Positions 8,174 to 37,339 are shown, counted from the stretch's first letter. The stretch: DNA of 64,000 nt from an uncultured Elusimicrobia bacterium (GCA_964357255.1 CAYHKQ010000001.1:5018-69017), one strand, 5' to 3'. Translations and numbers: made by a program. The notes: generated by a model from the letters alone, not told the origin.

Positions 8174-8245
8174 TGCCCCCGGGCGGAATCGAACCACCAT
8201 CTTCTCCTTAGGACGGAGTAACTCTATCCATTGAGCTACGGGGGC
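8174..8245 (-). tRNA. tRNA-Arg (anticodon CCT)
   Basis: Reverse complement folds as a cloverleaf: acceptor GCCCCCG/CGGGGGC, D-arm GCTC-AATGGAT-AGAG, anticodon stem ACTCC/GGAGA with loop GTCCTAA (CCT), T-arm GGTGG-TTCGATT-CCGCC, discriminator A, no encoded CCA. Confidence 0.8.
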
Positions 8246-10193: not shown

Positions 10194-10265
10194 CGGGGGT
10201 TGGCGTAGTGGTAGCGCGCACGCTTGGGGTGCGTGAGGTCGTGGGTTCAATTCCCACACCCCCGA
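10194..10265 (+). tRNA. tRNA-Pro (anticodon GGG)
   Basis: CGGGGGT-TG-GCGT-AGTGGTA-GCGC-G-CACGC-TTGGGGT-GCGTG-AGGTC-GTGGG-TTCAATT-CCCAC-ACCCCCG-A. Anticodon loop TTGGGGT. Confidence 0.8.
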
Positions 10266-10294: not shown

Positions 10295-11500
10295 ATGATC
10301 CCCAAAAAAGTCCTTATCCTCTACGGCGCCCCTGGTTCGGGCCATGCCCAAGTGGCTTCGGCGTTGGCCCAAGCGATTAATAAAACTCCGGGTTGGATGG
10401 CCCACGAAGATCATCTCTTGCGTCATTGGCCGGCCTTGGGCGGGCTTTTGTTGCGGTTATATCGCTGGGTTCTTGGACATATGGCGGGGGCCTGGGGGCG
10501 TTTACACGGCAATCCTCGCTACTTGGCGATGGCTCGGCGAGCGGAAAGCGTTCTTTACGGCCTGGACATTTTTCGGATTCAAAAAATTCTAGACCGGCAT
10601 CAGCCTCATTTAGTGATCGCCGTCCATGTTTTGCCTCTCAGGTGCCTCGCAGTTTTAAAAGCCGGCGGCAAATTTTCTTTGCCTTTGTATGCCGTCATTA
10701 CCGATTTTTGGGCGCACTCTTACTGGCCCGTAGCAGGCGTTGAGCGCTACTTTGCTTCGAGTAAATGCTCCGCGGATGATTTAATCGCCGGCGGCGTTCC
10801 GGCTCGGCGCGTTGCGATCACGGGCATTCCGCTACGTGAAGAATTTCGTTCCCATCCTTCTAAAATTTATTGCCGCCTGAGGACTAATTTTGATCCGATT
10901 CGCAAGCTAATCCTGGTGATGGGCGGTCGTTATGGGATTTTTCCTTTCGAGGAGTTACTTGAAGCCGCGATGAACGTTTCGGTTGCGCGGCAATGGCAGT
11001 GGGCATTTGTTTTTGGCGGCAATGATCGGGCCTTAAGGCGCGCTCGTGAGAATTTGCCGCCGGAGGAGTCCCGGCGCATTCGCTTGACGGGGTTTCTTGA
11101 GGACATGGCTCCATTGATGGCGGCTTCGGATCTTTTGATCACGAAAGCCGGAGGTTCGACCTTGGCTGAGGCGCTGGCCTGCGGGGTAGCGATGATTCTG
11201 TGCCGCCCCATTCCCGGACAGGAAGAAGGCAATGCTCGTTTTTTAGTAAGCCTGGGAGCGGCGTTGCGTGCCGACACAGCCGGCGTCGCCCTGCAAATGG
11301 CTGCCGGACTTCTTCAATCGTCCGACAAGATCGAGAGCATGCGAGAGGCCGCGCGGTCGCTGGCCTATCCCGACGCGGCCGGCGAGATTGCCCGGAGGTT
11401 GGACTCCCCGCTTGTTTTTGGTGGAGCCGAGGGGGCTCGAACCCCTGACCTCTTCCTTGCGAAGGAAGCGTTCTCCCAACTGAACTACGGCCCCATTTAA
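10295..11500 (+). CDS. GT28-family glycosyltransferase (MGDG-synthase/UgtP/MurG-like diacylglycerol glycosyltransferase)
   Basis: N-terminal KKVLILYGAPGSGHAQVASAL, typical of MGDG-synthase-like N-domains, and a C-terminal GT-B domain (LITKAGGSTLAEALACGVAMIL). The last ~26 codons read across the antisense of tRNA-Ala, so the true C-terminus is uncertain. Confidence 0.65.
   Translation: MIPKKVLILYGAPGSGHAQVASALAQAINKTPGWMAHEDHLLRHWPALGGLLLRLYRWVLGHMAGAWGRLHGNPRYLAMARRAESVLYGLDIFRIQKILDRHQPHLVIAVHVLPLRCLAVLKAGGKFSLPLYAVITDFWAHSYWPVAGVERYFASSKCSADDLIAGGVPARRVAITGIPLREEFRSHPSKIYCRLRTNFDPIRKLILVMGGRYGIFPFEELLEAAMNVSVARQWQWAFVFGGNDRALRRARENLPPEESRRIRLTGFLEDMAPLMAASDLLITKAGGSTLAEALACGVAMILCRPIPGQEEGNARFLVSLGAALRADTAGVALQMAAGLLQSSDKIESMREAARSLAYPDAAGEIARRLDSPLVFGGAEGARTPDLFLAKEAFSQLNYGPI
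11422..11494 (-). tRNA. tRNA-Ala (anticodon CGC)
   Basis: Reverse complement GGGGCCG-TA-GTTC-AGTTGGG-AGAAC-G-CTTCC-TTCGCAA-GGAAG-AGGTC-AGGGG-TTCGAGC-CCCCT-CGGCTCC-A, with the G3:U70 Ala identity pair. Confidence 0.85.
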
Positions 11501-11536: not shown

Positions 11537-11609
<73 letters not shown>

Positions 11610-23277: not shown

Positions 23278-25347
23278 TTATTCACCCGGCGACCTTCTCT
23301 CCATTTTATACGAATCTTGCCGATCATCAAATATCGTCCTTTCTGTGCTGGCCCATAAGCAACGTTGGACGGCTTGATGGCCCCGATTTTCAGCAATCAG
23401 CTCAAGTTGATTTTTCCCTTTTGGCAAGGCGAAATCTCCAAGCCGACTCCAGGATAGCGCGACAGGATCGCCGTCGGTGTCCGGCGTGAAAAATACAGGA
23501 AAATAAGGACCTTCGTCAAACCTGCCATAAAATTTTCCTCGCGCTGTTCCCCCTAAGAAACACCAAACACGGTATTGCCCATCGAAGGGAAGATTGAACG
23601 GAAAATTGATGCGGGCTACCACCGCGCCGTCATTCGGTCTAAAGAAAATCTGTCCAAAATTTGGGATGGAGGAAGTCCCCCATTCAGGTTGGTTCTCAGG
23701 TATCGCTTTCATCATATAGCCGCCTACGGGAAAGTGTCGGCGCCTTCTTAAGAGGCCGCCGAAAGGTAGCCGCTGAAAAAAAAGCGGGTCATCCGGAATT
23801 TGGTTCTTGAGCCCGAAGCGAAATTGGTACGCGGGTTTATCTGAAACGAGCAGCGCTTCCCGTTCGGGCCCTTGGGCCACCCAAGAATAACCAAGATATT
23901 CCTTCTCCTCCCTGAAGGTCCGGCCGTGGAATCCGGCTCCAGCCAAGGCCACAAAAGTATCCGGAGGAAAATCGGTAAAGACCGCCACATTTTTGGCGTT
24001 GGAGTAACGCTCCAGAAAAGCGGCGGCCGTCCGCGCGATCCGCGCAGTCATTCGATTCCTTTCGTTAGACTCTCCAATAAAGGACAGATGATAATCGGGA
24101 ACGTAAAACAGCCCAAACCCAACGACAATGGCCGCTTTGATGGCGAAAGCGGGAATACGAATGGCGCCGGGCAGAAAAGGAAGGCGTATGCTTTGACTTC
24201 GCCATAGACGGCCGATGGTTTCACCTGCCAGCAAAAGGATGGAGGGCAACACAATAAAAACATAACGGGGCTCATACCCAAAAATCAAAACAATCAATAC
24301 CACGGGGACTGTCAAAGAGACAAGAAGCGCCTTGTCTTGAACGGTGCGCCGCCGCAAGGCCCGCAGAACACCGGCGCCTGCGGCAATGCTCAGAAAAGGA
24401 TGAACCAATGGTTGGCCGGCGATATGGTCGAAGGGTGGCGGCAATTGAGGATATTCACGCGCGAGATAAAACCTCTCGCCACGCCAAAATAGTTCCCGAA
24501 CCAATGATAAAAATTGTTCCAAGCGGCCACCTGGCGCCCCATAGGCATCAAGTCCTATTTGCATTCCAAAACTTCGATCATCAAGGATCTTGAGGATATT
24601 GATAATGGGATCAAAAAAATTGGAGTAGCCCTGCAGTCTATAAGGCGCGCAAAGCAAGGCCGCGTAAACGCAGAAACTGACCGCCAGGAACGCCAAGGCC
24701 CTTCTTCCTATCGGCAGGCGCCGGCCCCAGGCGCAGACCGCCAAAAATACCGGCGGCAAAAAAACAACATTCCAAGCGCCAAGAAAAATACCCGACCCCA
24801 AACCAATTAATGTCAGAATGGCCAAGGCGCCAGGAATCCAAAAATTTTGAAAATCAAACCAGCGCCTTATCAAATAAAAGGTTGTTGACAAGGCCAGCAT
24901 AGGATAAAGCTGGGGATAGCAACCGGCACGCGCATAGGCGCTAAACCAACCGCAAGCGCTGGCTAGCGCCACAACCCAAAAACACTCCTCGGGCCCATAC
25001 CAACTCCAGGCAAGCCGGCCCAAAATCAAAATGACTGCCAAGGCGATACCCACGGAGGTCAACACAATGGGCCAATAGGGATCTCCTATCAAACGGGCCA
25101 AGCCAAGCTGAACGCCTCCGTAGGATGGAGTCAAGTAGCGCCACGACAGGCTCTCCATGGGTCCGCCATTGGCGGCCTGCGCTAAGGCCCGCAACACCTC
25201 CACATTGTCACCGGTGCTAGCCGGATAATAGATATCCAAATCTTTGAAAAAGAAAAAATAACAGGCAGTTGTGCCGGCCACGACTGACAAAATAAGCAAA
25301 AACCACGATCCAGCTTTACGAGAAGGAGAAGGGGAAGAAGGGGTCAA
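23278..25347 (-). CDS. GT39/ArnT-like membrane glycosyltransferase (polytopic, with a large C-terminal soluble domain)
   Basis: About 12 TM segments in the N-terminal 420 aa, a PMT_2/GT-C-like layout, 689 aa. Confidence 0.5.
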   Translation of the reverse strand: MTPSSPSPSRKAGSWFLLILSVVAGTTACYFFFFKDLDIYYPASTGDNVEVLRALAQAANGGPMESLSWRYLTPSYGGVQLGLARLIGDPYWPIVLTSVGIALAVILILGRLAWSWYGPEECFWVVALASACGWFSAYARAGCYPQLYPMLALSTTFYLIRRWFDFQNFWIPGALAILTLIGLGSGIFLGAWNVVFLPPVFLAVCAWGRRLPIGRRALAFLAVSFCVYAALLCAPYRLQGYSNFFDPIINILKILDDRSFGMQIGLDAYGAPGGRLEQFLSLVRELFWRGERFYLAREYPQLPPPFDHIAGQPLVHPFLSIAAGAGVLRALRRRTVQDKALLVSLTVPVVLIVLIFGYEPRYVFIVLPSILLLAGETIGRLWRSQSIRLPFLPGAIRIPAFAIKAAIVVGFGLFYVPDYHLSFIGESNERNRMTARIARTAAAFLERYSNAKNVAVFTDFPPDTFVALAGAGFHGRTFREEKEYLGYSWVAQGPEREALLVSDKPAYQFRFGLKNQIPDDPLFFQRLPFGGLLRRRRHFPVGGYMMKAIPENQPEWGTSSIPNFGQIFFRPNDGAVVARINFPFNLPFDGQYRVWCFLGGTARGKFYGRFDEGPYFPVFFTPDTDGDPVALSWSRLGDFALPKGKNQLELIAENRGHQAVQRCLWASTERTIFDDRQDSYKMERRSPGE

Positions 25348-25509
25348 GTCCCTAAATTACCTTAATTCTAATTTTTGTGCAGGTTACGATTAGCCTGCCT
25401 GAGTTTAGCCTTCAGCCTGGCCTCTTGTTCCGGAATTAGCCTGCGGCGGGTTTAGCGGAAGGGTTGTTTTGAGCAAGCGGTTGCGACGTTCCTGTCGGCG
25501 CATGGAGGC

Positions 25510-26613
25510 CTAAAACCAGACGTGGGTGAGGGCTAGAATTTCGTTGTTTGGCACGGAGGGCGTTTCGGTGACGATTCGGAGTTGGGTTTCCAGGGAAAGA
25601 TATTTCAGCAGGAACCACTCGGCGCCGAGGATGTAGCGTGTGCGCGAGTCTCCCGCCTTTTTGGTGTCGGGATTGAGATTGTCTAATTGTCCGCGCAGGA
25701 GCAGTTCATCCTTGGCCATTTCGTAGTTTAATTCGCCGTGAAAGGCCGTTTGATGGGTTTTTGCCGAGCCGGCATTCGCCGTGTTGGTCCCCCATCCTCC
25801 TTCGCCGATGAACACAATCATCCCAAATCGCGTCCAGCCGAATATTCCGTACCGGATTTCATTTTGCCCCGCGGCGCTGTCGGAATTTCGATGGTGGAAG
25901 AAGGTGGCTCCCATAGCCCCGGTTTTTCCGACAAATCCCCATCGGCCGGCAATCGCCTTGGCCTCGCTGGCCGCGGCGGCGCCGTTGGCGGCGCCATTGG
26001 TAACGGATAGGTTAAAAAAGTATTCGCTTTTTGGCGCCAAGCCGAATTCGATGCCCGTGTCTGACTGGGTCGGCGACAAGGAGAATCCGACCGAAGGCGC
26101 AAAGGGCGAGATGCGGGTCAGTCCGGAATTGTCGGGGTCGTTGAGTTGAAGGCCGTAGGGAATGAAAAAACGGCCCGCGCGCAGATAGGCCGGGAAGTCC
26201 CCAGGGAGCTTGGCGAGAGCGTACATTTCAGCCGTAGCGCCCTGATTGTTGTTGTAGAGGAGAGCCAACTCGGGAGTCGGAACGGCCAGCACGTAGAAGG
26301 CGTTGCGGACAACGGCGAAGGATGCGGCCGGTCCCGCCTCTTTTTTGTTCAGCATAAAACGGAAGTCCGCTCCAAGATTAACGGTGTCGCTTAATCGGGT
26401 GGGGTTGGAGGCCGATGGTTTTCTCATTCCACCTCCCGTCGGATTGATATGACAGGCCGCGCAGTTATAACCACGCGAAGCCGCATAATAGGGCTGAGCC
26501 TGGAGGAGGGAGCGGTTGAGCGGTTGAGCGGTTGAGCAGATAAGTAAAAAAAAGAATTTCCTTAAAACATTTAACCGCTTAACCGCTAAACAGCTCATCT
26601 GCCAACTCTGCAT
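25510..26613 (-). CDS. Predicted outer-membrane beta-barrel protein with an N-terminal CxxCH (haem-c-type) motif and the conserved leader
   Basis: Leader MQSWQMSCLAVKRLNVLRKFFFLLICSTAQPLNRS; GYNCAACHINPTGGG; beta-rich body; C-terminal ...THVWF (terminal Phe). Confidence 0.45.
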   Translation of the reverse strand: MQSWQMSCLAVKRLNVLRKFFFLLICSTAQPLNRSLLQAQPYYAASRGYNCAACHINPTGGGMRKPSASNPTRLSDTVNLGADFRFMLNKKEAGPAASFAVVRNAFYVLAVPTPELALLYNNNQGATAEMYALAKLPGDFPAYLRAGRFFIPYGLQLNDPDNSGLTRISPFAPSVGFSLSPTQSDTGIEFGLAPKSEYFFNLSVTNGAANGAAAASEAKAIAGRWGFVGKTGAMGATFFHHRNSDSAAGQNEIRYGIFGWTRFGMIVFIGEGGWGTNTANAGSAKTHQTAFHGELNYEMAKDELLLRGQLDNLNPDTKKAGDSRTRYILGAEWFLLKYLSLETQLRIVTETPSVPNNEILALTHVWF

Positions 26614-26614
26614 T

Positions 26615-27622
26615 TTATATTTTTACCCTTATCCCTAATTGATAGCTGTGGCCGAGTTGGCTGGAGGGTTGAACGGCCAGATCAAGACTTAGTGAACCCC
26701 ATTGAAGGCCGATTCCCGCGGTAAGACCGTCGAAGTATTCTCCAGGCCGGGCCGTTTCGGTGCGAAATCCGGCGCGGAAAGCCATGTAGAGAGGAATTTG
26801 GCGAAAGGGGCCGATCTCGGCCCATCGTTCCAGCCCCGCGTGCCAAGCCGGGTCATTGTCGCGCGCAACGACAAGGTCCAGGCTCGCAATGCCTTCGGGC
26901 AAGCCGGCTTGGTCTGCCTCGGGAGCCAGGCGGTAGGATAGGCCGGTTTTAAAGGTCAGGGGCAGGGGGGCCGAGGCTTGGCGTAATTGGACACGCTGGC
27001 CGATGTTGTCCGCGGTCAAAGAAAAGGCAAACGCTTTAACCCTGCGCAGGAGTCCCACGTCAAACGCTATGGCCTTTGCGGTTTCACCGTCAATGCCTTG
27101 GAAAATCCACTTTTCCGAGGCGCCAAGCGCCCAGGACCCGTCACCTATCGGCCGCGTCAGCGAGATGCAATAGGATTGATCCGATGGAGCGAACCTGCCG
27201 AATGCCGTTTCCGTGTTGTCTATTTTTTGGATTGCCTGGTGCTCAAGGCTTGTGAAAGAGAATCCGAACGTAAATCGTGAATAGCTCAGCGGCTGGGCGA
27301 AGGAAAGATAGCTGTAGCGGTAGAAGGACGGGAAATTATTGTGGCTGGCAACCAGTTCCCTTTTAGAAATTTGGCCCAGCCCGGCGGGGTTCCAATAAGC
27401 GGCGGTGGCGTCGTTAGCAACGGACGAAAAGGCTCCGCCCATGGCCGCGGCCCTGGCCCCGGCCGGGATTTTGAGAAATTGGGCTCCGGACGTGCCCCTG
27501 TCCCGTGAGGAGAAAGCCGCCCAGGAGGGGGAGCGGTTAAGCAGATAAGCGCTTAAGCAGATAAGGAAAAAAAAGGCGCTCAACCGCCCAACGGCCAAAC
27601 CGCTTAACCGTTTTTGTTTCAT
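26615..27622 (-). CDS. PorV/PorQ-like (FadL-type) outer-membrane beta-barrel protein
   Basis: Leader MKQKRLSGLAVGRLSAFFFLICLSAYLLNRS, then GARAAAMGGAFSSVANDATAAYWNPAGLG, characteristic of PorV/UPF0164-like barrels. 4-nt overlap with the upstream cargo-like gene. Confidence 0.45.
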   Translation of the reverse strand: MKQKRLSGLAVGRLSAFFFLICLSAYLLNRSPSWAAFSSRDRGTSGAQFLKIPAGARAAAMGGAFSSVANDATAAYWNPAGLGQISKRELVASHNNFPSFYRYSYLSFAQPLSYSRFTFGFSFTSLEHQAIQKIDNTETAFGRFAPSDQSYCISLTRPIGDGSWALGASEKWIFQGIDGETAKAIAFDVGLLRRVKAFAFSLTADNIGQRVQLRQASAPLPLTFKTGLSYRLAPEADQAGLPEGIASLDLVVARDNDPAWHAGLERWAEIGPFRQIPLYMAFRAGFRTETARPGEYFDGLTAGIGLQWGSLSLDLAVQPSSQLGHSYQLGIRVKI

Positions 27623-28887
27623 CGAATTATTGCCAGTTGGCCGGTTTTGACCCTGCCCCCATCATCCTGGGCGCTGTAAAGGTAGGTTCCGCTTGCCACG
27701 TCGTGGCCGCTACTGTTTTTGCCGTCCCAGAGTAATTGGTCGCCGGCGCCGGGATGTTTTTCCAGGGTCACCAGGAGTTCGCCGCTGACGCTGAAAATGC
27801 GGATCGTGGCGCGTTCCGTCAAGTATCGGAAGAAAATTCCCTGGCCGTCGAAATTTCCTCCGCTACCGGGCCGGTAGGGATTGGGTAAAACCGTTAACGA
27901 GTTCAGGCTTGAGGCGGAGGGAACGCCCAGGAGAGCGTAGACGGAAAAATGAGAAACCGGCGCTGAAATTTTTTTGCCGGATGTATTAAGCGAGAATCCC
28001 GGCACAGCCTCCCAGCGCTTGGAGGCCGCGTTGAGGGTGTAGAGTTGAAGCTGTTGGGCGCGCAAGGATGGCGAGGTGTTATCCACGACGCCGTCGTTGC
28101 TCGCGTCCGCGTAGGAAAGGCTGATGGTTATGGGACTGGCAAAATTATCGGTTTTTAATTCTCCTCCAGCCAGGGCGGCGAATTCTCTCAAGGAGCCGGC
28201 AAGAAGAATTTGCGACGAGTCTAGCGCGCTGTTGGCGCTCGCAATGTCGGCCGGCAGGGCTGTTATGGGCTTGGTTACGGGATCGAGGCTCACAAGCACG
28301 CTTCCCGCTCCTCCCAGGGCGCCGGCCGGGACTTGAACTTGCGTGGCGCCGTTTTCGGCGCTCAAGGCGGCATCCTCGTTGGCGCCGATGGATAGCGACG
28401 CGTCGGGAGTGATCACGGTTTGCGTGGAAGATTCGGCAAAGCCAAGATTATTTTCAGCTCTTAAGAGTCTTGAATAATTCGCGCCGGCCGCAAGGCCGGT
28501 TTCAATCCAAAAGGTGGTGGAGCCGCTCAGAGCGGCCAGAAATCCCGCCGTGCTCGTTGTGAGCGCATAGGCGCTGATATCGGCCTGGCTTGACCACGAC
28601 CATTTAATGCTTTCGGACGACAAGACTGCGCCTGAAAACGAGCTTGTCGAAGACGATTGGTTTGAGGCGGAGGAAATGGTGAAGACAAGGCCGTCCGAAC
28701 TTCCGATAGAGTTTTTTACCACGATTTTTCCTGTGGCGGTGGAAGGGATGACGGCTGTGATCGAGGTATCCGACCAGGAAGAATAAAAGGCGGTCATTGC
28801 GTTGAGCGTAACGGTTCCCGGGACAACGCCGAAAGCAACGCCGGTGATGGTTGTAGTGGAGCCGACGGCGCCGAAGGAGGGGGTCAA
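27619..28887 (-). CDS. Cell-surface protein with Ser/Thr-rich Ig/IPT-like repeats and a T9SS-type C-terminal sorting domain
   Basis: C-terminus LTVLPNPYRPGS...IRIFSVSGELLVTLEKH...LLWDGKNSSGHDVASGTYLYSAQDDGGRVKTGQLAIIR matches the NPF...IYDxxGRLV...WDGxN..G..VASGVYFY...GKL..IR pattern of Por_Secre_tail/FlgD-Ig-like domains. Confidence 0.55.
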   Translation of the reverse strand: MTPSFGAVGSTTTITGVAFGVVPGTVTLNAMTAFYSSWSDTSITAVIPSTATGKIVVKNSIGSSDGLVFTISSASNQSSSTSSFSGAVLSSESIKWSWSSQADISAYALTTSTAGFLAALSGSTTFWIETGLAAGANYSRLLRAENNLGFAESSTQTVITPDASLSIGANEDAALSAENGATQVQVPAGALGGAGSVLVSLDPVTKPITALPADIASANSALDSSQILLAGSLREFAALAGGELKTDNFASPITISLSYADASNDGVVDNTSPSLRAQQLQLYTLNAASKRWEAVPGFSLNTSGKKISAPVSHFSVYALLGVPSASSLNSLTVLPNPYRPGSGGNFDGQGIFFRYLTERATIRIFSVSGELLVTLEKHPGAGDQLLWDGKNSSGHDVASGTYLYSAQDDGGRVKTGQLAIIR

Positions 28888-29025
28888 TGAGGTTATGCTG
28901 GGAAGCTCGGCAACGGCCGCGTTAGTAAAATGGATATCGCCGTTCGGGGCTCCCCCCCCTCTGTTCGCGGCCGCGGAAAATCGGATTAAGGCGTTGCCGG
29001 CTGACCGCGCGGTCCAAGGGACCGT

Positions 29026-29455
29026 TCAGCTTGCGGCCGCGCTTTGGGCGGAATGTTTCCACCAATTAGCGCTGATCGTAGAATTCGAGCCTGCGTTTTT
29101 CCAGGCGCCGGCGCCCGAATGGCTTAAATTGCCGTCCCTGATTGTCGTGACTTCAAAACCGTTGCTACCGTTGTTATTGTCGCTGATAATGGTAAACGTG
29201 ATCGTGTAATCCGCGCCGGGTTTATAAGCCGAGGGGAGGGTCAGCGCGATGTCCGCGGAGCCGTTGGACGATGATCCCGCGCTGTGGCAGTCCGTGCATT
29301 GACCATCACCCGGCGCGCCGGTGTATCCGTCGGGCGGATTGGCGGTTTTGGCGACGACGCGGCGCAATCCAAAACCCAAGCACAGGGCAATTAATAATGG
29401 CAAGACAAGGATCGAGACGCGCCGTTGAAGGCGGGAAAAGAGAGGTCTAGTCCTC
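29026..29455 (-). CDS. Small secreted protein with a single CxxCH motif (probable monohaem c-type or metal site)
   Basis: Probable TTG start overlapping the DUF2203 stop (MRTRPLFSRLQRRVSILVLPLLIALCLGFG signal). NPPDGYTGAPGDGQCTDCHSAGS. The ORF-track Met at 29547 lies inside the upstream gene. Confidence 0.4.
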
Positions 29456-29881
29456 AATATCCCGGCAGGCAAATTCGGAAGGCAGTGGTTTTCGTCCCGC
29501 GAAACCGTCTTCAGGGCCGTGATAATGGGAAATTTCTTTTTCGCCATATTTCCAACACAGGTAGACTTCGCGGCCGCATAATCGGTGCGGGAAATCCACC
29601 AGGCATGGCTCCAATCCCTTGGGCATGCAACCTAGTTTAGCGATTTCGGAGAGCTCATCTTCGATTTGTGAGACAAGAAAATCGGCTTGAGAGCGGGCCA
29701 GAAGAAGGTCAACCGGATTGGCCTTGGGATTTTTTTCCTGCCGATGAAAATGGAGAACTTTCTGTTCGGCATGGCCCTTGAGCGCCAAGACCCGTCCCAG
29801 CGTTTCTTCAAGACGAGGAATTAGAGACTCAGCCTCTTCTAAAGAAAAATAACGCACCCATTTATTATAGCTGAATTTCAA
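29447..29881 (-). CDS. DUF2203-family protein
   Basis: MKFSYNKWVRYFSLEEAESLIPRLEETLGRVLAL matches the DUF2203 N-terminus; 144 aa. First gene of the minus-strand operon. Confidence 0.5.
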   Translation of the reverse strand: MKFSYNKWVRYFSLEEAESLIPRLEETLGRVLALKGHAEQKVLHFHRQEKNPKANPVDLLLARSQADFLVSQIEDELSEIAKLGCMPKGLEPCLVDFPHRLCGREVYLCWKYGEKEISHYHGPEDGFAGRKPLPSEFACRDIED

Positions 29882-29954
29882 TTCATCAAATTGCGGAATT
29901 TTTTCGTTTTTCCGTTTACTAAACCGCTTATCTGTCGTCTGTCTAACCGTTTTT

Positions 29955-30787
29955 TTATCGTCGAGCTTCTACGGCTTTTTGGGCTTCGCGGACGCGGTCG
30001 TTTTTGGTGATGGAGTTGAGCTCGTTTAACGCGATTTCGCCGTCTCTGGCCCGGCGGATGATCTCGATGAGGAATTCGTAATTCTGGCGTGAAATTTCCG
30101 TTACTTTATCTATAACGTCAATTTGTTTTTCACCTTGCGCTGTTTGCACGACCTTGATAGCGTAGCGGATGTTGAGCAGGTGGCGGTTGCTGATTTGCCG
30201 GGCATACGCCGACATGCGATCGCGGATCATCGCGGCGTCGTCGGCGTAGTCCTCGGCCCGTCCGGCGTTTTGTTCCCATTGGTTGAGAGAGTGAATATAG
30301 TTGCCATGGGAATACTGTTGATTGTCGAGGTAATTGAGGCGTTTTCCCATATCCTTGAGCCGCGTTTCCCAGTATCCGTTGATATCTTTGGCCTGTTGCG
30401 CGAGATCCTCGAATCCTTTGATCGCCTTAAGCGCGTAATCTTCGTGTTTTTTCATTTCGCGTTCGATTTTGAGCGTGTTGGTCAAGGTATGGACGTCCAT
30501 CTGATGGCGTTTTTTTGGTTTGGGCTGTGGACGGGCCGCAGGAGTTTCGCCAAAGGGCATCAAGAGCGTAATAGCTTCTTCTCGCGGTTCGATCCGGACC
30601 TCATCAGACCGCTCGGCGTACCAGTCGTTTTCATCTGCTTGGTGGCCATGGCGGCCGCCAAAGAGGCTATGGGTCAACGCGTTGCTCGTCCCCAGGAGAA
30701 GCCAGAGCGTCAGCATCCTACTCATGGCCTGCCTTAACGCAGGGCTTGATTTTGGCGGATTGCGAAAGAAAATTCCCCTATTGCTCA
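29955..30787 (-). CDS. Hypothetical secreted coiled-coil protein
   Basis: Start probably at MSNRG (AGGAGAACC-ATG). Signal peptide MSRMLTLWLLLGTSNA; helical, Glu/Lys/Gln-rich. Confidence 0.35.
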
Positions 30788-30864
30788 TGGTTCTCCTGGG
30801 GCGAGCCCCCACCTTTCTTATTTACCAGAAGAACGGAAAATTTTCAAGGTTTATTTTGTAACCA

Positions 30865-31653
30865 TCAGCGTAGCCAGCCTTGGAGGTTTTCTTTGCGGGT
30901 TTGAACAAGGATCCAGCCTTCTTTTTTTTCTAGAATCCGGACGAATCGGCCTTCGGGGATTTGGGTGGTAATCGGCAGGCTCTCGGAAGGACCGGAGCGC
31001 AAAAGACCGGGACCTTTTAGGATCATCCATTCATATCGTCCGGCCGCTGCGTGGGAGAGCGTCAGCGCCAATGAAACCGCCAAACCGGCTCCGCCGGCCC
31101 AGGCGATCGCTCGCAGATTGGCGGAGGTTTTCGCGCCGGGCCGATATTTCAGGACGAACAGCGAGAGCGCCAGGGCCCACCACAAAATTAGAGTGAGAGC
31201 CGTCCATTCGGGGAAGTTCAAAAGATTCCACAGTCTGTAAAGGGCATAAGGCACGCCCGCGGGAGCCGGCGTGTCGCCGGTTTTTTGGCAGGCGATGGCC
31301 AAATTGCGCCAGAGGGCGTTGCTTCGGGGGTTGACGTGGATGGCCTTCCAGTATTGTTCAAGGGCTTCCGGATAATTATTGGCCTTAAAATCGGCGTTGC
31401 CCGCGTTGTAATAGGCCTGCCAGATTTCGGGGTTTTCCTGCGAGAAACGTCCATAAAGTTCAGCCGCCTTGAGGTAGTTGCCGTCTTTGTAAGCCTGAGC
31501 GGCCTCCTGCCACAGGGAGGTTGCGCGTGGTCTCTGGCCCCAGATCGAGTTGCCATGGCAGAATACATTAGCCATGCAGACAAGTAAAAACAAGCGCTTG
31601 AGTAATTTGAGGCAATTTTTTTTATCACTCAACCGTTTGACCTCTATTATCAT
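30865..31653 (-). CDS. batE: BatE-like TPR/TM/SH3b protein
   Basis: TPR repeats (AAQAYKDGNYLKAAELY...AGNADFKANNYPEALEQYWKAIHVNP), a TM segment, C-terminal SH3b-like GRFVRILEKKEGWILVQ. Last gene of the Bat operon. Confidence 0.6.
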   Translation of the reverse strand: MIIEVKRLSDKKNCLKLLKRLFLLVCMANVFCHGNSIWGQRPRATSLWQEAAQAYKDGNYLKAAELYGRFSQENPEIWQAYYNAGNADFKANNYPEALEQYWKAIHVNPRSNALWRNLAIACQKTGDTPAPAGVPYALYRLWNLLNFPEWTALTLILWWALALSLFVLKYRPGAKTSANLRAIAWAGGAGLAVSLALTLSHAAAGRYEWMILKGPGLLRSGPSESLPITTQIPEGRFVRILEKKEGWILVQTRKENLQGWLR

Positions 31654-33641
31654 GAAAGTTTTTCCAAAATTTTTTTTGCCTGGAGGACGCCCTCGAGAAC
31701 CTCGCTGAGAATTTCCTGCGCCTCCTCTTGGCGCGCCGGGGCGAATCTTAGATAATGCAGGCTCTCAAGAGTTTGGCGCAGAGTTTGGACTTCGGCCGAC
31801 GAAATTTTACCCCGGGCTTTATTGGCGATTTCTTCCGGCAGAGTTTTGGGGGTGACGGCCTCGGCCAAGCCAAGGATTTGGCGCAGAGCGCCCTCGAGGG
31901 CCGGAGCCAGCGCGCCGGCCATTTCAATCGGTTTATTTTCTTGGGCAAGGACTGAGGCTTTTTTGATGGCGTCGGCCAGGCGTTCAAGGGGCCGGCTTTT
32001 TTTAGCCAGGCGTTTTTTTCGCGCCATCCCGATTGCGCTTGTGGCCAGCCACAGGAGAACCGGTAGCCCTCCCGCGCCGGCCCAGCGCCGCGTCAAAGTC
32101 ATGCTTAGGCGATGGAAAATCCCTGGCGCGGGTGTCGCCTCAATGATGAACCCGATGTCCTCGCCAAATTTTTTGGCGTCCCCGCGCCCTCCGGCGGCGC
32201 CGGAGGCCGTGTGGATCGGCTCGCCGGAAACATTGACTGAAAGCGGCCGGGTTTCGCGGCGCACGTAGCCCTTGGCCTTGGGATCAAAGTACACGAAGCG
32301 GATGGGAGGGATGATCAGAGCGGGGTTGCCGGGGACTTGCGGAATCAACAGAAGCTTGAAGGTTTTTTTGCCGCTGATTTTTCCGTCTTGCTTGGTTATG
32401 GTTTCCGTTTTTTCAGTCTCATAACTGCGGAAGACGCCTTCTAAATTGGGATAGGCCGGGCTCGGCAAGCTGCGGATATTGCCTTCGCCGGAAATGGCGA
32501 CCGTCAGAGTCAGCGTGTCGCCGATTTTAATGCCGGTTTTATCGAGCCCGGCTTCGAGATCGAATTGGCCCACGGCGCCGGAAAAATCCCTGGGGCGCGA
32601 CTCCTGCGGCAGGGCAAAGGCCGTGATTTCCACGGATTTGGTTTCCAGGAGATGGGTCTGGCCGGATCCTCCGCCGAAGAAACGTTGAAAAAATTGCGGA
32701 TCAAAAGGATCGTTTGAGCCTGCGCCGGCCTGTTCGATTTCCATCTGAACCTTGGCCGGGCTGATTTTGAGCTTGCCAGGATTGGTCGGGAAGAGAATCA
32801 GGGGGATTTCCGTGGCTTGATAAGGAGTTCCGCGCACGTTGGTTTGAAAGGTTTTCTGCGGCAAATTTTCCTGCCAGAATCCGCTCGTATTGGGCGGAAC
32901 ATACTGAGGTTGCGAAAGGAAAGCGACGCGGGTGTAGAAAAGAACGGAGAGTTTGACGGGCTCGCCGACATACGCCTCATGCTTATCCGTCCTGGCTTCA
33001 ATAAAAACCAGAGGCGGCGCTTCTTCCGGGGCCTCCTTGGGTCCCTTGCGGCGGGTCTCGCCGTCCGGGCCTGGGCCCGGAGATTGGGCTCGCTCAGCGC
33101 GTTTGTCTTCGAGCATTTGCCGGGTTGTGCGAGGGAAATTCGGCACGGCAAAGGGTTGGATGATCCCCTGGGGCGCGCCCTGCACCTGGGCGGATTTTTG
33201 GTCCGCGACTTCTATGGACACGGTATTGGAGGCGATTTCCTGGCCGCCGCCGGCGTCAATTTTGGCGGGACCAAGTTTATATGCTCCGGGCTTTGACGCG
33301 GATAAAAGCAATGTGTAGATTACGCTGGTCGTCATTTTCCAGTTGACGATTTCGACTTTTTGGCTCTTCGATTGGGAATAGACGGAGAGTTCCGGCGGGA
33401 TGATGATTTTGGGTTCACTCAAGCCCCCTGAACTTCCGTTGACGGAAATTTCAAGCGCCGCGGTGTCGCCGAGGAGCATTTTGTTTTTATCCAGGCGCAG
33501 GACGATCTCGACACCGGCCCACAGGGGGAAGGCAAAAAAGGCCATAAACGCCAAAGAGGCCAAAGAGGCGAAGGAATAAATATTTTCCTTATAGCCTTTT
33601 TGGCTTTTATGGCCCCCGGGGCTTCTTTTGCCTTGTTTCAT
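31650..33641 (-). CDS. batD: BatD-like protein (oxygen-tolerance family)
   Basis: 663 aa, N-terminal signal/TM, a large beta-rich ectodomain, a TM near the C-terminal third followed by a helical tail. 4-nt overlaps with both neighbours. Confidence 0.6.
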   Translation of the reverse strand: MKQGKRSPGGHKSQKGYKENIYSFASLASLAFMAFFAFPLWAGVEIVLRLDKNKMLLGDTAALEISVNGSSGGLSEPKIIIPPELSVYSQSKSQKVEIVNWKMTTSVIYTLLLSASKPGAYKLGPAKIDAGGGQEIASNTVSIEVADQKSAQVQGAPQGIIQPFAVPNFPRTTRQMLEDKRAERAQSPGPGPDGETRRKGPKEAPEEAPPLVFIEARTDKHEAYVGEPVKLSVLFYTRVAFLSQPQYVPPNTSGFWQENLPQKTFQTNVRGTPYQATEIPLILFPTNPGKLKISPAKVQMEIEQAGAGSNDPFDPQFFQRFFGGGSGQTHLLETKSVEITAFALPQESRPRDFSGAVGQFDLEAGLDKTGIKIGDTLTLTVAISGEGNIRSLPSPAYPNLEGVFRSYETEKTETITKQDGKISGKKTFKLLLIPQVPGNPALIIPPIRFVYFDPKAKGYVRRETRPLSVNVSGEPIHTASGAAGGRGDAKKFGEDIGFIIEATPAPGIFHRLSMTLTRRWAGAGGLPVLLWLATSAIGMARKKRLAKKSRPLERLADAIKKASVLAQENKPIEMAGALAPALEGALRQILGLAEAVTPKTLPEEIANKARGKISSAEVQTLRQTLESLHYLRFAPARQEEAQEILSEVLEGVLQAKKILEKLS

Positions 33642-33643
33642 GT

Positions 33644-34330
33644 TTACCAGTCATTCTCCACATTTGTTTCCTGGGAGCGGCGTTTTTTCATTTTTTGGGC
33701 TTGCTTCATTTGCTCTTGCTCGAAGGAATCGAGGAGCGACTGTATAGCCTGTTGGTCCATTTGGGACTCTTCATTTTTTTTCTGTTGGTCCTGTTTGTCT
33801 TCCCCCCCTCCCTGGCCGCCGGAATTTTTTTGGTTCTCCGGGGGTTTGGTAAGCCTCAGCGCCAGGGCCAGATTATGCCGCGCGTCCTCGTCTGCGGGAT
33901 TGAGCAATAGAGATTTTTTGTACGCTTCAACCGCTTCCTGGGTTTTGTTCTGACTGTAGAGCGCGTTGCCCAAATTGTACCAGCTTGCCGCTTGAAGTTT
34001 CGTGTCTTTGGCTGACGATTGTCTTGATTGGGCAAAGGATCGCGAGGCGTCTTCTAGGTCGCCTAGTTTATATGTCGCGCAACCCTTATTAAATTGAATG
34101 ATGGGATTTTTTGGATCGAGCCGGCCGGCCTGATTGAACGAGTTTAACGCCGATTGGTAATCGCCTTTTTTGAATTGGTCCGCCCCCTCCCGCGTGGGAG
34201 GCTTCCAGGAAGCCGCATGAGGAAAGGTGAATGAGGTGAACAACGTCAATAAGGTAAACAATGCAAAAGACAACCAAAGAGTATTTTTTTTAACCTGATT
34301 CGCCTCATTCGCCTTATTCATATTATTCAC
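33644..34330 (-). CDS. batC: BatC-like TPR protein
   Basis: N-terminal TM, TPR repeats (YQSALNSFNQAGRLDPKNP, NLGNALYSQNKTQEAVEAYKKSLLLNP), a C-terminal charged low-complexity tail. Confidence 0.6.
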   Translation of the reverse strand: MNNMNKANEANQVKKNTLWLSFALFTLLTLFTSFTFPHAASWKPPTREGADQFKKGDYQSALNSFNQAGRLDPKNPIIQFNKGCATYKLGDLEDASRSFAQSRQSSAKDTKLQAASWYNLGNALYSQNKTQEAVEAYKKSLLLNPADEDARHNLALALRLTKPPENQKNSGGQGGGEDKQDQQKKNEESQMDQQAIQSLLDSFEQEQMKQAQKMKKRRSQETNVENDW

Positions 34331-35343
34331 TTTCTTTTTTTCTCCGGTATCGCCATTTCCGCCAGTAGCAACATAAATCCGACGGCCAACGGAATCTGGA
34401 ACCGGTTTTGAAGTCGCGTCCTTATTCCTTTGTCCTTTTTAGAGTCCGGATTGTTCACGATGGACCCGAGCTCCGCTTGCGGATCAGCGCTGTTATCGAG
34501 CCGGATAAACCGGCCCCCTGTCTTAGCCGTTAGTTCTTCCACCGAATCGGCCTTAGCGCGCGTTAGAACCGTTTTGTCCTCTCGATTCTTTTTATACCCT
34601 AAAAAATTTCCATTTTCATCTTTTAGTGGAATGGGTTCGCCTTCCGGAGAGCCGACCCAGAGCGTGGAGACCCGGATGCGGTTTTTAAGGAGGGGGCCGG
34701 TCATGCTACGCGCGTCCCCTTCGTGATTTTCGCCGTCCGTAACTAGCAGGACGTCGCGCGCGCCGGCCACTTTAGACAAAAGATTCTGCGCGGTTTTTAA
34801 GCCCGCGGCGATGTTGGTTCCGGGATGAGGCAGGCTGCCGGGAGCCACGGTTTCAAAAGCAAGACGCAGGGCGCCGGCGTCGAGAGTCAGGGGGCATTGC
34901 AGGTAGGCTCGGCCGGCGAAGGTGACTAGGCCCAGGCGAGAGAGGGCTTGAGCGCTACTCTTGGCGTAGGCGGAGATGATCTCGAATTTGGCGCGCTCGA
35001 AGCGGCTCGGTTTGATGTCTTGGGCCAGCATAGAGTCCGACACGTCCATCACAATTATGAGATTGTTGCCCAAGAGCGGCGTTTTCTCAAGGCGCGCGCC
35101 CCATTGCGGCCCGGCCAGGGCCAGGACGCTAAAGAATAAGGCGGCAGTTAAAAGCCAGGCTTTGGAACCTCGAAGGTCGAGCCCGCGTCCCGATGCCAGG
35201 AGCGAGCGAAGCGTGTGCGACGCGATGAGCCGCGCTAAAAGCCGGTTGCGCTTTCGCGGCAGCCAACGCAAGGCGGCCAGAGCCAATATCCCGCCATAGA
35301 GGAAGAACCACAGAAATTGAGGAAAAGCGAATAAATCCGTCAT
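34327..35343 (-). CDS. batB: BatB-like von Willebrand factor A domain membrane protein
   Basis: Two N-terminal TM segments and a VWA domain with the MIDAS motif DVSDSM. Confidence 0.7.
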   Translation of the reverse strand: MTDLFAFPQFLWFFLYGGILALAALRWLPRKRNRLLARLIASHTLRSLLASGRGLDLRGSKAWLLTAALFFSVLALAGPQWGARLEKTPLLGNNLIIVMDVSDSMLAQDIKPSRFERAKFEIISAYAKSSAQALSRLGLVTFAGRAYLQCPLTLDAGALRLAFETVAPGSLPHPGTNIAAGLKTAQNLLSKVAGARDVLLVTDGENHEGDARSMTGPLLKNRIRVSTLWVGSPEGEPIPLKDENGNFLGYKKNREDKTVLTRAKADSVEELTAKTGGRFIRLDNSADPQAELGSIVNNPDSKKDKGIRTRLQNRFQIPLAVGFMLLLAEMAIPEKKRK

Positions 35344-36368
35344 GGCAAAGTCAGCAGTAGCGTGCCGCGCAGAAGGATTTCGGTTCCCAAGAGAAACAGA
35401 GCCGCCATGAGTAGCGGCGGATACAGCTCTTCGTAGTGATGCGTCTTGGGCGGGGCGGCCTCGGTTTTTTCAAGGCGGTCGATTTCTTCGAAGATTCCCT
35501 TGAGTTCGTTGAGTTCCGTGGCCCGGAAGTATTTCCCCTCCGTGATTTCGGCGACCTTGGTGAGCGTATCCTCGTCAATCTCTTCCTCAGGCCGGCGAAT
35601 ATAGCGCGTTCCGAAAATCGGGTCCACCACAGGGAAAATTCCGCCGCCCCGCTTTCCGGTGCCGATGGTGTAGATTTTGACGCCGAGCGCTCGCGCTGTT
35701 TTGGCTCCGGTGACGGGGTCCACGGATCCCGCGTTGTTTCTGCCGTCCGTCAGAAGAATAATGGTTTTTGATTTGCTCGGGACTTTTTTGAGATGCGCCA
35801 GGGAAACCATAATCGCGCTACCTATGGCCGTGCCGTCGGTTTGGGTCATATTGATTTCGACTTGCTCTAAGAAACTTTGCACGGCCTGTTTGTCTAGCGT
35901 CAAGGGGCACGCGAGGATAGCCGCCCCTCCAAAGGCCACAATGCCGATGCGATCTGAGCCGCGTTTATCCACGAACTCCGAGGCGATTTTTTTGGCGCCC
36001 TGAAGGCGGTTGAAGGGCTGAAAATCCAGGGCTTGCATCGAGCCCGAAGTGTCGAGGGCGAGCGCGATGTCGACGCCGAGCAAGGGTTCCAGCTGTTCAG
36101 TGGTCACTTTTTGCGGCCGCATCAGGGCCAGGACCAAAACGGCCAAGGCGGCCGCGCGAATGAGGGCAAGAATTATAGAGGACGGGTGGCGTCGGCGCAG
36201 GCCGCTTTGTTGATTTAACAATTGATAGTTATGTTCCGCTTTGGAGTAAATCAGGGCGGCTGAAGCCGAGACTTTCTTATGTTTGAGGATTTGGATGATC
36301 AAAGATACGCCGAGTCCAAGAATCAGGCAAGCCAGGCCGAGCCAGGGAGATGCGAACTCGAGTTTCAT
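35340..36368 (-). CDS. batA: BatA-like von Willebrand factor A domain membrane protein
   Basis: N-terminal TM and VWA with MIDAS DTSGSM...TDG. Confidence 0.7.
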   Translation of the reverse strand: MKLEFASPWLGLACLILGLGVSLIIQILKHKKVSASAALIYSKAEHNYQLLNQQSGLRRRHPSSIILALIRAAALAVLVLALMRPQKVTTEQLEPLLGVDIALALDTSGSMQALDFQPFNRLQGAKKIASEFVDKRGSDRIGIVAFGGAAILACPLTLDKQAVQSFLEQVEINMTQTDGTAIGSAIMVSLAHLKKVPSKSKTIILLTDGRNNAGSVDPVTGAKTARALGVKIYTIGTGKRGGGIFPVVDPIFGTRYIRRPEEEIDEDTLTKVAEITEGKYFRATELNELKGIFEEIDRLEKTEAAPPKTHHYEELYPPLLMAALFLLGTEILLRGTLLLTLP

Positions 36369-37339
36369 GCGGTCTTTTGCGTTGCCGCGTTTTCCGGCTC
36401 CGCCGCCGGCGCAGGGCGCGCTCGGTGCGCCTCGACAAATTCTTTAAGAATCGTCACTGCGTGGGCGTTCTCCCCGTCGTCCGGCGCGTATTTGGCGAAT
36501 TTGGCAAGGTCGGTAATTTCAAGGCTTTCTTTTAAGCGAATCACGGCCGGCAAGTCAACGCCCAGGCTCTGGCGCTCCCTGTGCAGGAGGCGCGTGAGTT
36601 CCGCGCTGGTCAAGCTTTGGGTGTCGAGGCTAAAGCGCCGGTCAAGATACTTGCGGTAAATCTCGCTTAACGCGAAATAAAATTCCCGGTTTTTTCGTGA
36701 TTCCAAGAGGCGCATCTGAATCAGCGCGGCAAGATCGCGCTCGAAAGTTTCTTCAGCGCTGAGCTTGGATTGCGCCTGACGTCCGGCTTGAGCCTGGATT
36801 TTATGACGCGAGCGCAAAAACCATAACAGCGCCAGGATTCCCAGAATGCCGCCCACGCTAAAGCCGGCAATCACCCATGGCTTCTCCCAGAAGTAAAGGG
36901 GTTTTCTGGGTCGCTTGATATCCCGAAGCTCGGCCGGGTTTTTCGCGTTGTGCGTGGGGTCGAGAATTTTAAGATGAACCGGAGGGGTTTTAACGACAGT
37001 CGTTTGCCCGATGGTTCCTTGGGCGGGAATTTCCAAACTCGGCACATCCATATCTCCGATTTTAAACGCCATCAGCGCGACGTCCAGCATGGTGATTTTT
37101 TTGTCGCCGTCTTTGCCTTCCTTGGAATGGAAATCCCACAGCGTAAAATCCCCCCATTGAGTTTGGCCGGTTTTCCAAGAGGTTAAGTCAATTTTGACGG
37201 CATTGCCCGAACGAATCGTGTAGGCAATGGCTACCGGATGGGCCAGGGGAACCTCGGTTTGCCTGGGTTTGGCTTCAACGCCGATAGTTTCCTGGCCGAA
37301 GGCAAGGGTTATTAGGAGTATCCAAATTGAACTGTTCAT
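36365..37339 (-). CDS. DUF4381-like membrane protein (the usual upstream partner of batA)
   Basis: Signal peptide, KILDPTH...IKRPRKPLYFWEKPWVIAGFSVGGILGILALLWFL (the ILDIRPP...PW motif plus a TM). Confidence 0.45.
   Translation of the reverse strand: MNSSIWILLITLAFGQETIGVEAKPRQTEVPLAHPVAIAYTIRSGNAVKIDLTSWKTGQTQWGDFTLWDFHSKEGKDGDKKITMLDVALMAFKIGDMDVPSLEIPAQGTIGQTTVVKTPPVHLKILDPTHNAKNPAELRDIKRPRKPLYFWEKPWVIAGFSVGGILGILALLWFLRSRHKIQAQAGRQAQSKLSAEETFERDLAALIQMRLLESRKNREFYFALSEIYRKYLDRRFSLDTQSLTSAELTRLLHRERQSLGVDLPAVIRLKESLEITDLAKFAKYAPDDGENAHAVTILKEFVEAHRARPAPAAEPENAATQKTA

Follow-up and report, generated by a model that had tools for sequence, protein, structure and literature searches.

A gene cluster from an uncultured Elusimicrobia bacterium encodes a remote Cyc2 homolog beside a putative PorQ/PorZ-type surface anchor

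A gene cluster on the minus strand at positions 25510 to 29881 of a 64,000-nucleotide stretch of DNA from an uncultured Elusimicrobia bacterium (GCA_964357255.1, CAYHKQ010000001.1:5018-69017; the whole 64-kb stretch is called the window below) encodes a porin fused to a single CxxCH motif, a PorV/PorQ-family outer-membrane barrel, and a surface protein whose C-terminal domain (CTD) resembles that of PorZ. By sequence comparison, the cytochrome-porin is a remote homolog of Cyc2 and belongs to the Cyc2 superfamily. On the evidence of how the genes are built, which families they belong to or are remotely related to, which motifs they conserve, and how consistently they co-occur, we lean toward the interpretation that the cluster is an outer-membrane and cell-surface redox module of three functionally linked genes in a groundwater bacterium, equipped with a PorQ/PorZ-type anchor and accompanied by an accessory DUF2203 gene. 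The features of the cluster are as follows.

29447 to 29881, minus strand: DUF2203 protein, 144 amino acids (Pfam PF09969, E 4.5e-34)
29026 to 29457, minus strand: 5′ part of the surface-protein gene, encoding the signal peptide and the first two-thirds of the choice-of-anchor V (Reeler-like) domain, with GDGQCTDCHS
29026 to 29028, minus strand: in-frame TGA splitting the surface-protein gene, the frame being identical on either side
27619 to 29025, minus strand: 3′ part of the surface-protein gene, encoding the end of choice-of-anchor V, TIG/Fn3-like Ig domains, a middle domain, and the CTD
26615 to 27622, minus strand: PorV/PorQ-family outer-membrane barrel, 335 amino acids (NF033709)
25510 to 26613, minus strand: fused monoheme-motif cytochrome-porin, 367 amino acids, reading from the signal peptide through PYYAASRGYNCAACHINPTGGG to a 16-strand OprP-like barrel ending in HVWF

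The original prediction had described this region as a five-gene operon. Its open reading frames (ORFs) lie on the minus strand where they had been placed, the Pfam match bears out the DUF2203 assignment, and both tight junctions were verified in the sequence: the ATG of the barrel gene overlaps the surface-protein stop codon (ATGA, 27619-27622, read directly), and a single base (26614) separates the barrel gene (26615) from the cytochrome-porin gene (26613). The gene count, however, falls to four, as the ORFs taken for a small CxxCH protein and a CTD-bearing surface protein are one interrupted gene. The end of the DUF2203 gene overlaps the likely TTG start of that gene (29457).

The cytochrome-porin is a remote homolog of Cyc2

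The cytochrome-porin falls in no Pfam or NCBIfam family and returned a weak Porin_O_P match alone. Its single CxxCH occupies residues 51 to 55, after a hydrophobic leader ending in LLQAQ. In 22 homologs, Cys51, Cys54, and His55 are invariant and stand directly after the signal peptide, in the consensus (R/Q)PYYAAxKGLSCAACHxNPxGGGxR; the terminal Phe is also invariant. The AlphaFold2 (AF2) model has 16 strands, with a predicted local distance difference test score (pLDDT) of 82, and its nearest solved relative is OprP/OprO. The earlier description of the last protein as a barrel with a terminal Phe therefore holds, as does the conservation of its CxxCH on which the heme proposal had been made to depend.

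Cyc2 binds heme c and oxidizes Fe(II). It is defined by a signal peptide, one CXXCH, and a 16-strand OprO/OprP-like porin, and further by PXFAR[Q/K][T/Y] before the CXXCH, PXL after it, and a length of at least 365 amino acids (most at least 400); its carriers are Acidithiobacillus, Zetaproteobacteria, Gallionellaceae, and Chlorobi (Keffer et al. 2021, PMC8406198). The window protein has the signal peptide, the single CXXCH near the N terminus, and the 16-strand OprO/OprP-like porin. It departs from the definition in both flanking motifs: PYYAASRGYNC, without Arg-[Q/K]-[T/Y], precedes the CXXCH (relatives have PRFAARTG or EPYLAVRxG), and CH-INPTGGGMR stands in place of PXL, in line with the family consensus NPxGGGxR. 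The longest ORF gives a precursor of 367 amino acids against the Cyc2 threshold of 365, and family members mostly span 345 to 400.

A Cyc2 reference set was assembled by scanning metagenome contigs for a DNA pattern encoding FAR[Q/K][T/Y]-x(2-6)-CxxCH. The scan yielded 71 ORFs, all with a spacing of three residues between the motif and the first Cys; 67 of these span 405 to 581 amino acids and carry AxPxFAR(K/Q)(Y/T)GxxCxxCHxxxPxLNxFGxxFKxNGY. When 158 members of the window protein's family were aligned to the 67 Cyc2 sequences with hhalign, the profiles matched over 327 columns (98.7%, E 1.7e-16), and matches persisted for the 35-residue heme segment alone (96.7%, E 3.5e-10) and the barrel alone (95.4%, E 1.9e-8). 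As a control, the family was compared with PorV/Q barrels (4.8%, E 0.0083); this result, together with the independent match of the heme segment, rules out generic beta-barrel similarity as the source of the Cyc2 match. Both groups share a register ahead of the first Cys, with P at -10, an aromatic residue at -8, A at -7, and G at -3. A hidden Markov model (HMM) built from the 67 Cyc2 sequences matched 87 of the 158 family members and no window ORF at E ≤ 10. The profile homology is strong, yet the published motifs and the HMM are missed, and we therefore place the window protein in the Cyc2 superfamily and not in Cyc2 as published.

The window protein is thus like Cyc2 in its signal peptide, mature N-terminal CxxCH, 16-strand porin, pre-Cys register, and full-length profile homology. 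It differs in being about 100 residues shorter, in having NPxGGGxR where Cyc2 has PxL...FGxxFKxNGY, and in its neighbors, among which there is no cyc1, cox, or rus. The family further ends in H-x-(F/W/Y)-F, a terminus that Cyc2 proper lacks and whose His is 95% conserved in the 158 aligned members (His364 in the window). Apart from this His and the CxxCH, the family conserves no His, Met, or Cys. By strand alternation it would face the lumen at the periplasmic rim, which makes it a candidate sixth heme ligand. An HMM-based report of Cyc2 in an Elusimicrobiota metagenome-assembled genome (MAG) exists (PMC8357290).

Because an invariant CxxCH occupies the Cyc2-equivalent place in a homologous protein, the cytochrome-porin most likely binds one heme in or under its pore. 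The earlier likening of the pairing to a much smaller porin-cytochrome arrangement is vindicated by the homology to Cyc2, itself a fused cytochrome-porin; the fusion is accordingly of an already known kind.

MtrCAB, PioAB/MtoAB, and Geobacter Pcc consist of 20- to 26-strand barrels sheathing a separate multiheme cytochrome. They share with the window the idea of an outer-membrane barrel co-encoded with periplasmic or surface heme proteins for extracellular electron transfer. The window instead has one heme motif fused to a 16-strand porin, and its surface partner is a single-motif, Reeler-like protein with a CTD anchor. An MtrAB/Pcc-type complex was rejected on strand number and heme count.

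The family is large and annotated as hypothetical

An exhaustive profile search recovered 2,823 cluster representatives (50% identity) at E ≤ 1e-3 and 410 at E ≤ 1e-30. Among the best 150 matches, 144 representatives were new; the motif was present in 136 of these, and the remaining eight are truncated at the N terminus. Those named members that were looked up are all called "hypothetical protein"; their hosts include Nitrospirota, Ignavibacteria, Gemmatimonadota, and Deltaproteobacteria. When one genome per species was scanned, the family turned up in Eisenbacteria, Krumholzibacteriia, Latescibacterota, Marinimicrobia, Verrucomicrobia, and Chitinophagaceae and in many Gamma- and Betaproteobacteria, among them the cultured genera Marinimicrobium, Povalibacter, Aliikangiella, Roseateles, and Paucibacter.

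Gene-start calls conceal the motif. The exact porin product is present at NCBI, from an Elusimicrobiota MAG (sister contig L001, 4105-5022), as a 305-amino-acid protein starting at Met63, a gene model that cuts off the signal peptide and the invariant CxxCH. Sequence upstream of Met63 is conserved, so the long form is correct; with leader and CxxCH stripped, such database entries resemble a plain hypothetical protein.

The surface protein carries a PorZ-like CTD and is coupled to a PorV/PorQ-family barrel

The surface protein, of about 600 amino acids, has a signal peptide followed by a choice-of-anchor V domain and then by TIG and Fn3-like domains; a conserved middle domain precedes the CTD of about 100 residues. 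Its 5′ fragment belongs to choice-of-anchor V at 53.1 bits (NF041895, cutoff 42), and its orthologs score 66 to 106 bits. TIG (PF01833) reached 23.2 bits; FlgD_ig and Por_Secre_tail remained below threshold.

The CTD occupies the last 100 or so amino acids (27619-27948) and matches the PorZ C terminus locally. The type A CTD model for a type IX secretion system (T9SS), TIGR04183, has a cutoff of 23 bits, and the claim of a T9SS-type CTD falls short of it in the window itself, at 15.6 bits. The orthologs in contigs L003 (27.2 bits) and L004 (23.1 bits) reach the cutoff, and that in L002 scores 22.8 bits. A profile of nine CTDs supports a T9SS-CTD-like domain: its best match in the Protein Data Bank (PDB) is PorZ (5m11_A, residues 663-758, E 6.1e-11), followed by PorU (E 0.0066). 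The type B model TIGR04131 reached just 18.6 bits, in one ortholog.

The adjoining barrel (26615-27622) had been called PorV/PorQ-like, and it scores 124.7 bits against NF033709 (cutoff 90) over profile positions 1 to 324 of 326, which places it in the PorV/PorQ family; orthologous barrels score 90 to 119 bits. It does not reach the equivalog models for PorQ (NF033711, 94.7 of 220 bits), PorV (NF033710, 38.7 of 250), or PorV2 (62 of 325). In the PDB, the barrel profile matches Flavobacterium johnsoniae PorV (6h3i_F, E 7.6e-22).

In Porphyromonas gingivalis, the CTDs of PorZ and PorU are uncleaved, and PorZ is held at the cell surface by the PorQ barrel (PMC10947112). A PorZ/PorU-like CTD whose gene shares an ATGA overlap with that of a PorV/PorQ-family barrel suggests, by analogy, that CTD-barrel binding most likely tethers the surface protein to the barrel. 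The earlier picture of PorV as a cargo shuttle thus gives way to a nearer analogy, a retained CTD on a PorQ/PorV-type barrel, as in PorZ-PorQ. The PorQ-PorZ and PorV-PorU pairs of the P. gingivalis T9SS attachment complex (PMC10947112; PMC5562754) likewise combine a PorV/PorQ-family barrel with a surface protein bearing a retained-type CTD. In the window, by contrast, the barrel stays below the PorQ and PorV equivalog scores, the cargo is PorZ-like in its CTD only, and the pair is encoded by overlapping genes beside a cytochrome-porin in an Elusimicrobiota host; T9SS is described for Bacteroidota (PMC12365241). According to the summary that PMC10947112 gives of Gorasia et al. 2022 (PMC9143113), a PorP/SprF-like anchor gene lies next to that of type B CTD cargo in Bacteroidota. 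On that summary, both cases follow the logic of encoding a dedicated anchoring barrel beside its CTD cargo, whereas the window barrel is PorV/Q and not PorP, and its CTD is type A and PorZ-like, not type B.

A conserved Cys/His motif lies at the N terminus of the surface protein

The original prediction placed two CxxCH proteins at the flanks of the operon. Both motifs are present, and they are the only two found in six frames among ORFs of at least 60 amino acids in the window; GDGQCTDCHS, however, belongs to the N-terminal domain of the surface protein and not to a separate protein. In all eight aligned orthologs the N terminus keeps the motif PPxGxTGxPGDxxxCxxCH, in which the second Cys and the His are invariant and the first Cys lies two residues ahead in six orthologs and four residues ahead in two. 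The site is thus conserved, as Cx2CH or Cx4CH, in 8/8 orthologs.

The choice-of-anchor V profile matches the F-spondin reeler domain weakly (E 7e-4), and two orthologs have weak Pfam Reeler matches. Set beside choice-of-anchor V (NF041895) and Reeler (PF02014; F-spondin PDB 2zou/3coo), the window N-terminal domain is above the NCBIfam cutoff for the former and its profile matches the latter; the Cx2-4CH segment is outside the Reeler-aligned part, on its N-terminal side. The name of NF041895 carries no function; choice-of-anchor domains are defined solely as surface-sorted. Searching for homologs with the choice-of-anchor V domain alone gave no matches, probably an effect of the word index.

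These properties would also suit an adhesin or S-layer-like protein held on a PorV/Q barrel, with the Cys-x-x-Cys-His a disulfide or metal site and the porin merely co-transcribed. A TIG and Fn3 stalk and a Reeler-like fold are typical of extracellular binding proteins, the Cys spacing is two or four residues, and choice-of-anchor domains are defined by surface sorting alone. We nevertheless consider a cargo-plus-anchor system devoid of redox function quite unlikely, given the gene neighborhoods described next: the trio is kept in nine lineages though gene order changes, it gains further CxxCH proteins along with a gene for cytochrome c assembly, and an independent lineage (L065) fuses choice-of-anchor V to a cytochrome domain beside a family barrel.

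The three genes are kept together and acquire redox neighbors

Nine lineages (the window with L001, L002, L003, L004, and L088 to L092) have the genes for the surface protein, the PorV/Q barrel, and the cytochrome-porin side by side, which answers the earlier call for a check of operon conservation. Related contigs come from groundwater metagenomes, and barrel identity among the trio-bearing relatives is about 41 to 64%. The genes occur in two orders, the porin coming either after the surface protein and PorV/Q or before them, and this adjacency in nine lineages under two orders supports a functional linkage. The partners are missing from L007 (39% identity). DUF2203 is syntenic in the window with L001 and in L003 only and is missing from L002, L004, and L088 to L092; we therefore regard it as an accessory neighbor.

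Four lineages (L004, L088, L091, and L092) add two genes. One encodes an exported protein of about 260 amino acids with one CxxCH (PPYxxLFxxKYxYxPxCxxCH), matched in part by the "GEGP motif diheme" model. The other encodes a four-helix membrane protein of about 155 amino acids (Pfam Aq_1264_TM) with the motif RMxHQHxFGHG, which could be a heme or metal site; no relevant paper on Aq_1264 was found in a literature search. L089 carries this membrane protein too. In L088 the next gene encodes a Cytochrom_C_asm (CcsA-type) protein (PF01578, 87.5 bits). In L213, the nearest relative of the window with downstream sequence, the extra genes are missing as they are in the window. The coordinates of the extra genes are as follows.

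L004, 4719 to 5977
L088, 4920 to 6170
L091, 7630 to 8891
L092, 4100 to 5372
L089, 81 to 560

Outside this clade the PorV/Q and CTD partners are gone. In the wider family a CxxCH lipoprotein adjoins the porin at 56 of 68 genome loci (among L009 to L087), upstream or downstream of it on the same strand and at a median gap of 5 nt. Its single CxxCH stands in a PSCyt1-like motif, ..C..CH.G..AP.GL.L...PGDPD.S.L..K..G....G.RMP, and the pair looks like an apparently unannotated two-gene porin/cytochrome unit. Two examples are given here.

L063, 9096 to 9941
L005, 7120 to 7992

In the unrelated lineage L065, a 354-amino-acid protein (4103-5167) combines choice-of-anchor V (105.7 bits) with PSCyt1 (Planctomycete-type cytochrome c, 34.5 bits) and a dockerin; it is encoded 1.2 kb upstream of a family barrel, and two PSCyt1-like genes also follow. 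The extra CxxCH proteins, the L088 assembly gene, the L065 fusion, and the lipoprotein pairing together support a redox context, as does the confinement of the window's CxxCH-bearing ORFs to this cluster.

Other neighbors would suit nutrition in place of respiration, with the surface protein capturing iron, heme, or another metal and the CxxCH porin admitting or reducing it. In L004 the module is followed by genes for a FecR-domain protein and a ZIP permease, and in the window a FecR-domain protein (1985-3778) adjoins another barrel with the same signal peptide. T9SS-anchored heme-binding proteins exist, moreover, in Bacteroidota. We give an acquisition function little credence: the FecR and ZIP neighbors of the module occur in one of nine lineages only, the conserved extra partners are periplasmic CxxCH and His-rich membrane proteins and not transporters, and an invariant CxxCH implies a covalent heme cofactor rather than heme as cargo.

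A possible extracellular electron conduit

In the redox module that we favor, the cytochrome-porin would be exported by Sec, and electrons would cross the outer membrane via the single heme in or under its pore, by analogy with Cyc2. The surface protein would be displayed outside, its Ig-like domains forming a stalk and its distal choice-of-anchor V Cx2-4CH site possibly binding heme or a metal. The translationally coupled PorV/Q barrel would bind the retained CTD and so tether the surface protein beside the cytochrome-porin, with which the distal site may exchange electrons. The periplasm might then exchange electrons with a partner outside the cell, dissolved or mineral iron being the simplest candidate. 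In the sister lineages, the 260-amino-acid monoheme protein and the His-rich inner-membrane protein may carry electrons to or from the inner membrane, completing a trans-envelope path. Heme attachment, CTD-barrel binding, the direction and substrate of electron flow, and the export route of the surface protein are the steps that we infer.

Several observations weigh against this interpretation. Heme attachment in the family is deduced from the motif and from homology, and the window protein misses both the published motifs of Cyc2 and its HMM. The Cys spacing of the surface-protein site is variable (Cx2CH or Cx4CH), a pattern that a disulfide or metal site fits too, and the AF2 model of choice-of-anchor V, made from two sequences, has a pLDDT of 45.9 and no usable fold. 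The 64-kb window holds no Ccm or Ccs genes; the 260-amino-acid CxxCH protein, Aq_1264_TM, CcsBA, and the PSCyt1-like lipoprotein are also absent from it, and no T9SS core family (SprA/Sov, PorK/L/M/N, PorU) was matched among the roughly 25 window proteins scanned. In this assembly a stop codon breaks the surface-protein gene. The wider family is found in many ordinary aerobic heterotrophs (Cellvibrio, Roseateles, Marinimicrobium), so its presence does not imply that iron is oxidized for energy.

The earlier view of the cluster as an undescribed envelope module survives in part: the module is conserved, and "undescribed" applies to only some of it, a key component belonging to the Cyc2 superfamily. 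In the searchable literature, we found no description of the short sister family as such, of its near-universal pairing with a neighboring CxxCH protein, or of the porin's coupling, in the Elusimicrobiota-like clade, to a CTD-bearing choice-of-anchor V protein and a barrel of the PorV/PorQ family; no relevant paper linked choice-of-anchor to cytochrome or cytochrome-porin to PorV. We tentatively advance a proposal in two parts, offered jointly. The first is that a large, unannotated sister family of Cyc2, marked by PxΦAxRxGxxCxxCHxNPxGGGxR and a C-terminal HxΦF, extends over many phyla and has been missed by Cyc2 motif and HMM screens. The second is that Elusimicrobiota-like groundwater lineages combine this pore with a PorQ/PorZ-type CTD-on-barrel anchor that displays a heme-motif Reeler protein. 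Were both parts true, the cluster would amount to a minimal conduit for extracellular electron transfer, some of its components drawn from type IX attachment, in a phylum not known for T9SS.

When microbial iron oxidation is inferred from genomes or metagenomes, Cyc2 is the main genetic marker. The published motif, length, and HMM criteria exclude a homologous family of more than 2,800 clusters (50% identity), and part of the repertoire of outer-membrane single-heme conduits is thus invisible to current surveys. If the mechanism is true, T9SS-style CTD/barrel anchoring would position redox proteins outside Bacteroidota, and the three- to five-gene cluster would offer a compact system for studying electron hand-over from a porin heme to a surface partner. 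Two public annotations are corrected here, the truncated porin start and the split surface-protein gene.

An in-frame TGA interrupts the surface-protein gene

ORFs 29026-29547 and 27619-28887 are in one frame, and their sole separator is the TGA at 29026-29028, after which 138 nt remain open. On the 5′ ORF alone, NF041895 is matched over profile positions 9 to 92 of 150; with the TGA read through, the match spans the stop (residues 65-204, profile positions 9 to 142 of 150, 54.6 bits). The shared frame and the domain match across the TGA identify the "small CxxCH protein" as the N-terminal domain of the surface protein, whose orthologs are single ORFs of 517 to 1748 amino acids. Candidate starts are TTG at 29457 (probable), ATG at 29547 (longest ORF), and TTG at 29403 (the PGAP choice in the sister contig).

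Contig L001 (GCA_038059855.1) is the same as the window at 5,039 of 5,044 bases (99.9%), and four of the five mismatches fall inside 29017-29027. L001 has TTT (Phe) at the window TGA and ACA at the window CCT, and its gene is annotated as a single 594-amino-acid "choice-of-anchor V domain-containing protein." More distant orthologs have Phe, Tyr, or Trp at the TGA position. In the window, TGA terminates 22 of 65 ORFs; RNA 3′ of this TGA does not exceed shuffled sequence in stability (z = -0.47) and has no structure resembling a selenocysteine insertion sequence (SECIS). Selenocysteine incorporation or other stop recoding is ruled out by the Phe, Tyr, or Trp of the homologs, the ordinary use of TGA as a stop, and the z score. 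We conclude that the TGA, confined to this strain or assembly, reflects either a nonsense variant or an error in the consensus, and that the module in this assembly is either damaged or mis-assembled.

It is possible, if rather unlikely, that this genome's copy is a decaying remnant, its surface-protein gene a true pseudogene and perhaps only the two barrels still made. The TGA sits in frame within a conserved domain, is a normal stop in the window, and has no SECIS-like structure nearby. Yet the remainder of the 1.9-kb frame is intact and 99 to 100% identical to the uninterrupted sister copy, and four of the five differences in 5 kb crowd into 11 nt, a clustering that suggests a consensus or strain-mixing artifact, or a very recent event. 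Decay would in any case bear on this copy only and not on the nature of the module.

A signal-peptide cassette carries the CGGTTWAG repeats

Three genes share a 5′ coding cassette of about 100 nt (26511-26613, minus strand; 27520-27622, minus strand; 4531-4650, plus strand). The copies are 72 to 86% identical (blastn, 86% over 81 nt); similarity begins just past the ATG and stops at the signal-peptide cleavage region. All three genes encode exported, probably outer-membrane, proteins, and the cassette peptide reads M.KQRLSGLAVKR(L/F)S..F(F/Y)LL.CLSAQLLNR. The cassette is known from this species only (the window and L001), and gene conversion or an RNA-level signal at translation start is a possible origin.

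The CGGTTWAG motif, which had been read as a leader shared by the operon, is indeed enriched (12 copies in the window against 3.7 expected). Two of its three local copies, however, lie within the signal-peptide coding cassette and not in an untranslated leader; for these, an untranslated leader or RNA element was rejected, as they are codons of the signal-peptide n-region RLSGLAVKRLS. The third copy (29919-29926) is in the 73-nt gap upstream of DUF2203. Within the cassette the units are 8-nt periodic, with four in tandem at 4543-4574. CGGTT repeats at 27578-27600 (minus strand), inside the PorV/Q gene, could form a 10-pair stem followed by a T-run and were flagged as terminator-like; the T-run supplies the Phe-Phe-Phe codons of the signal peptide, and such flags in the region are not above shuffled sequence.

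Surrounding sequence

A promoter and terminator scan of 25200-30900 gave nothing above shuffled sequence, and Rfam had no match in the cluster region. Upstream on the same strand (30865-37339, minus strand) lies a run of genes of Bat-like aerotolerance type, with a BatD homolog (31650-33641), tetratricopeptide repeat (TPR) proteins, and overlapping stops and starts. The Bat-type genes of the window are assigned by context similarity only, and a family scan of 36365-37339 gave no clear match. BatD is upstream of the module in L003 too. An Rfam scan identified four tRNA genes, unrelated to the module, at 8174-8245, 10194-10265, 11422-11494, and 11537-11609.

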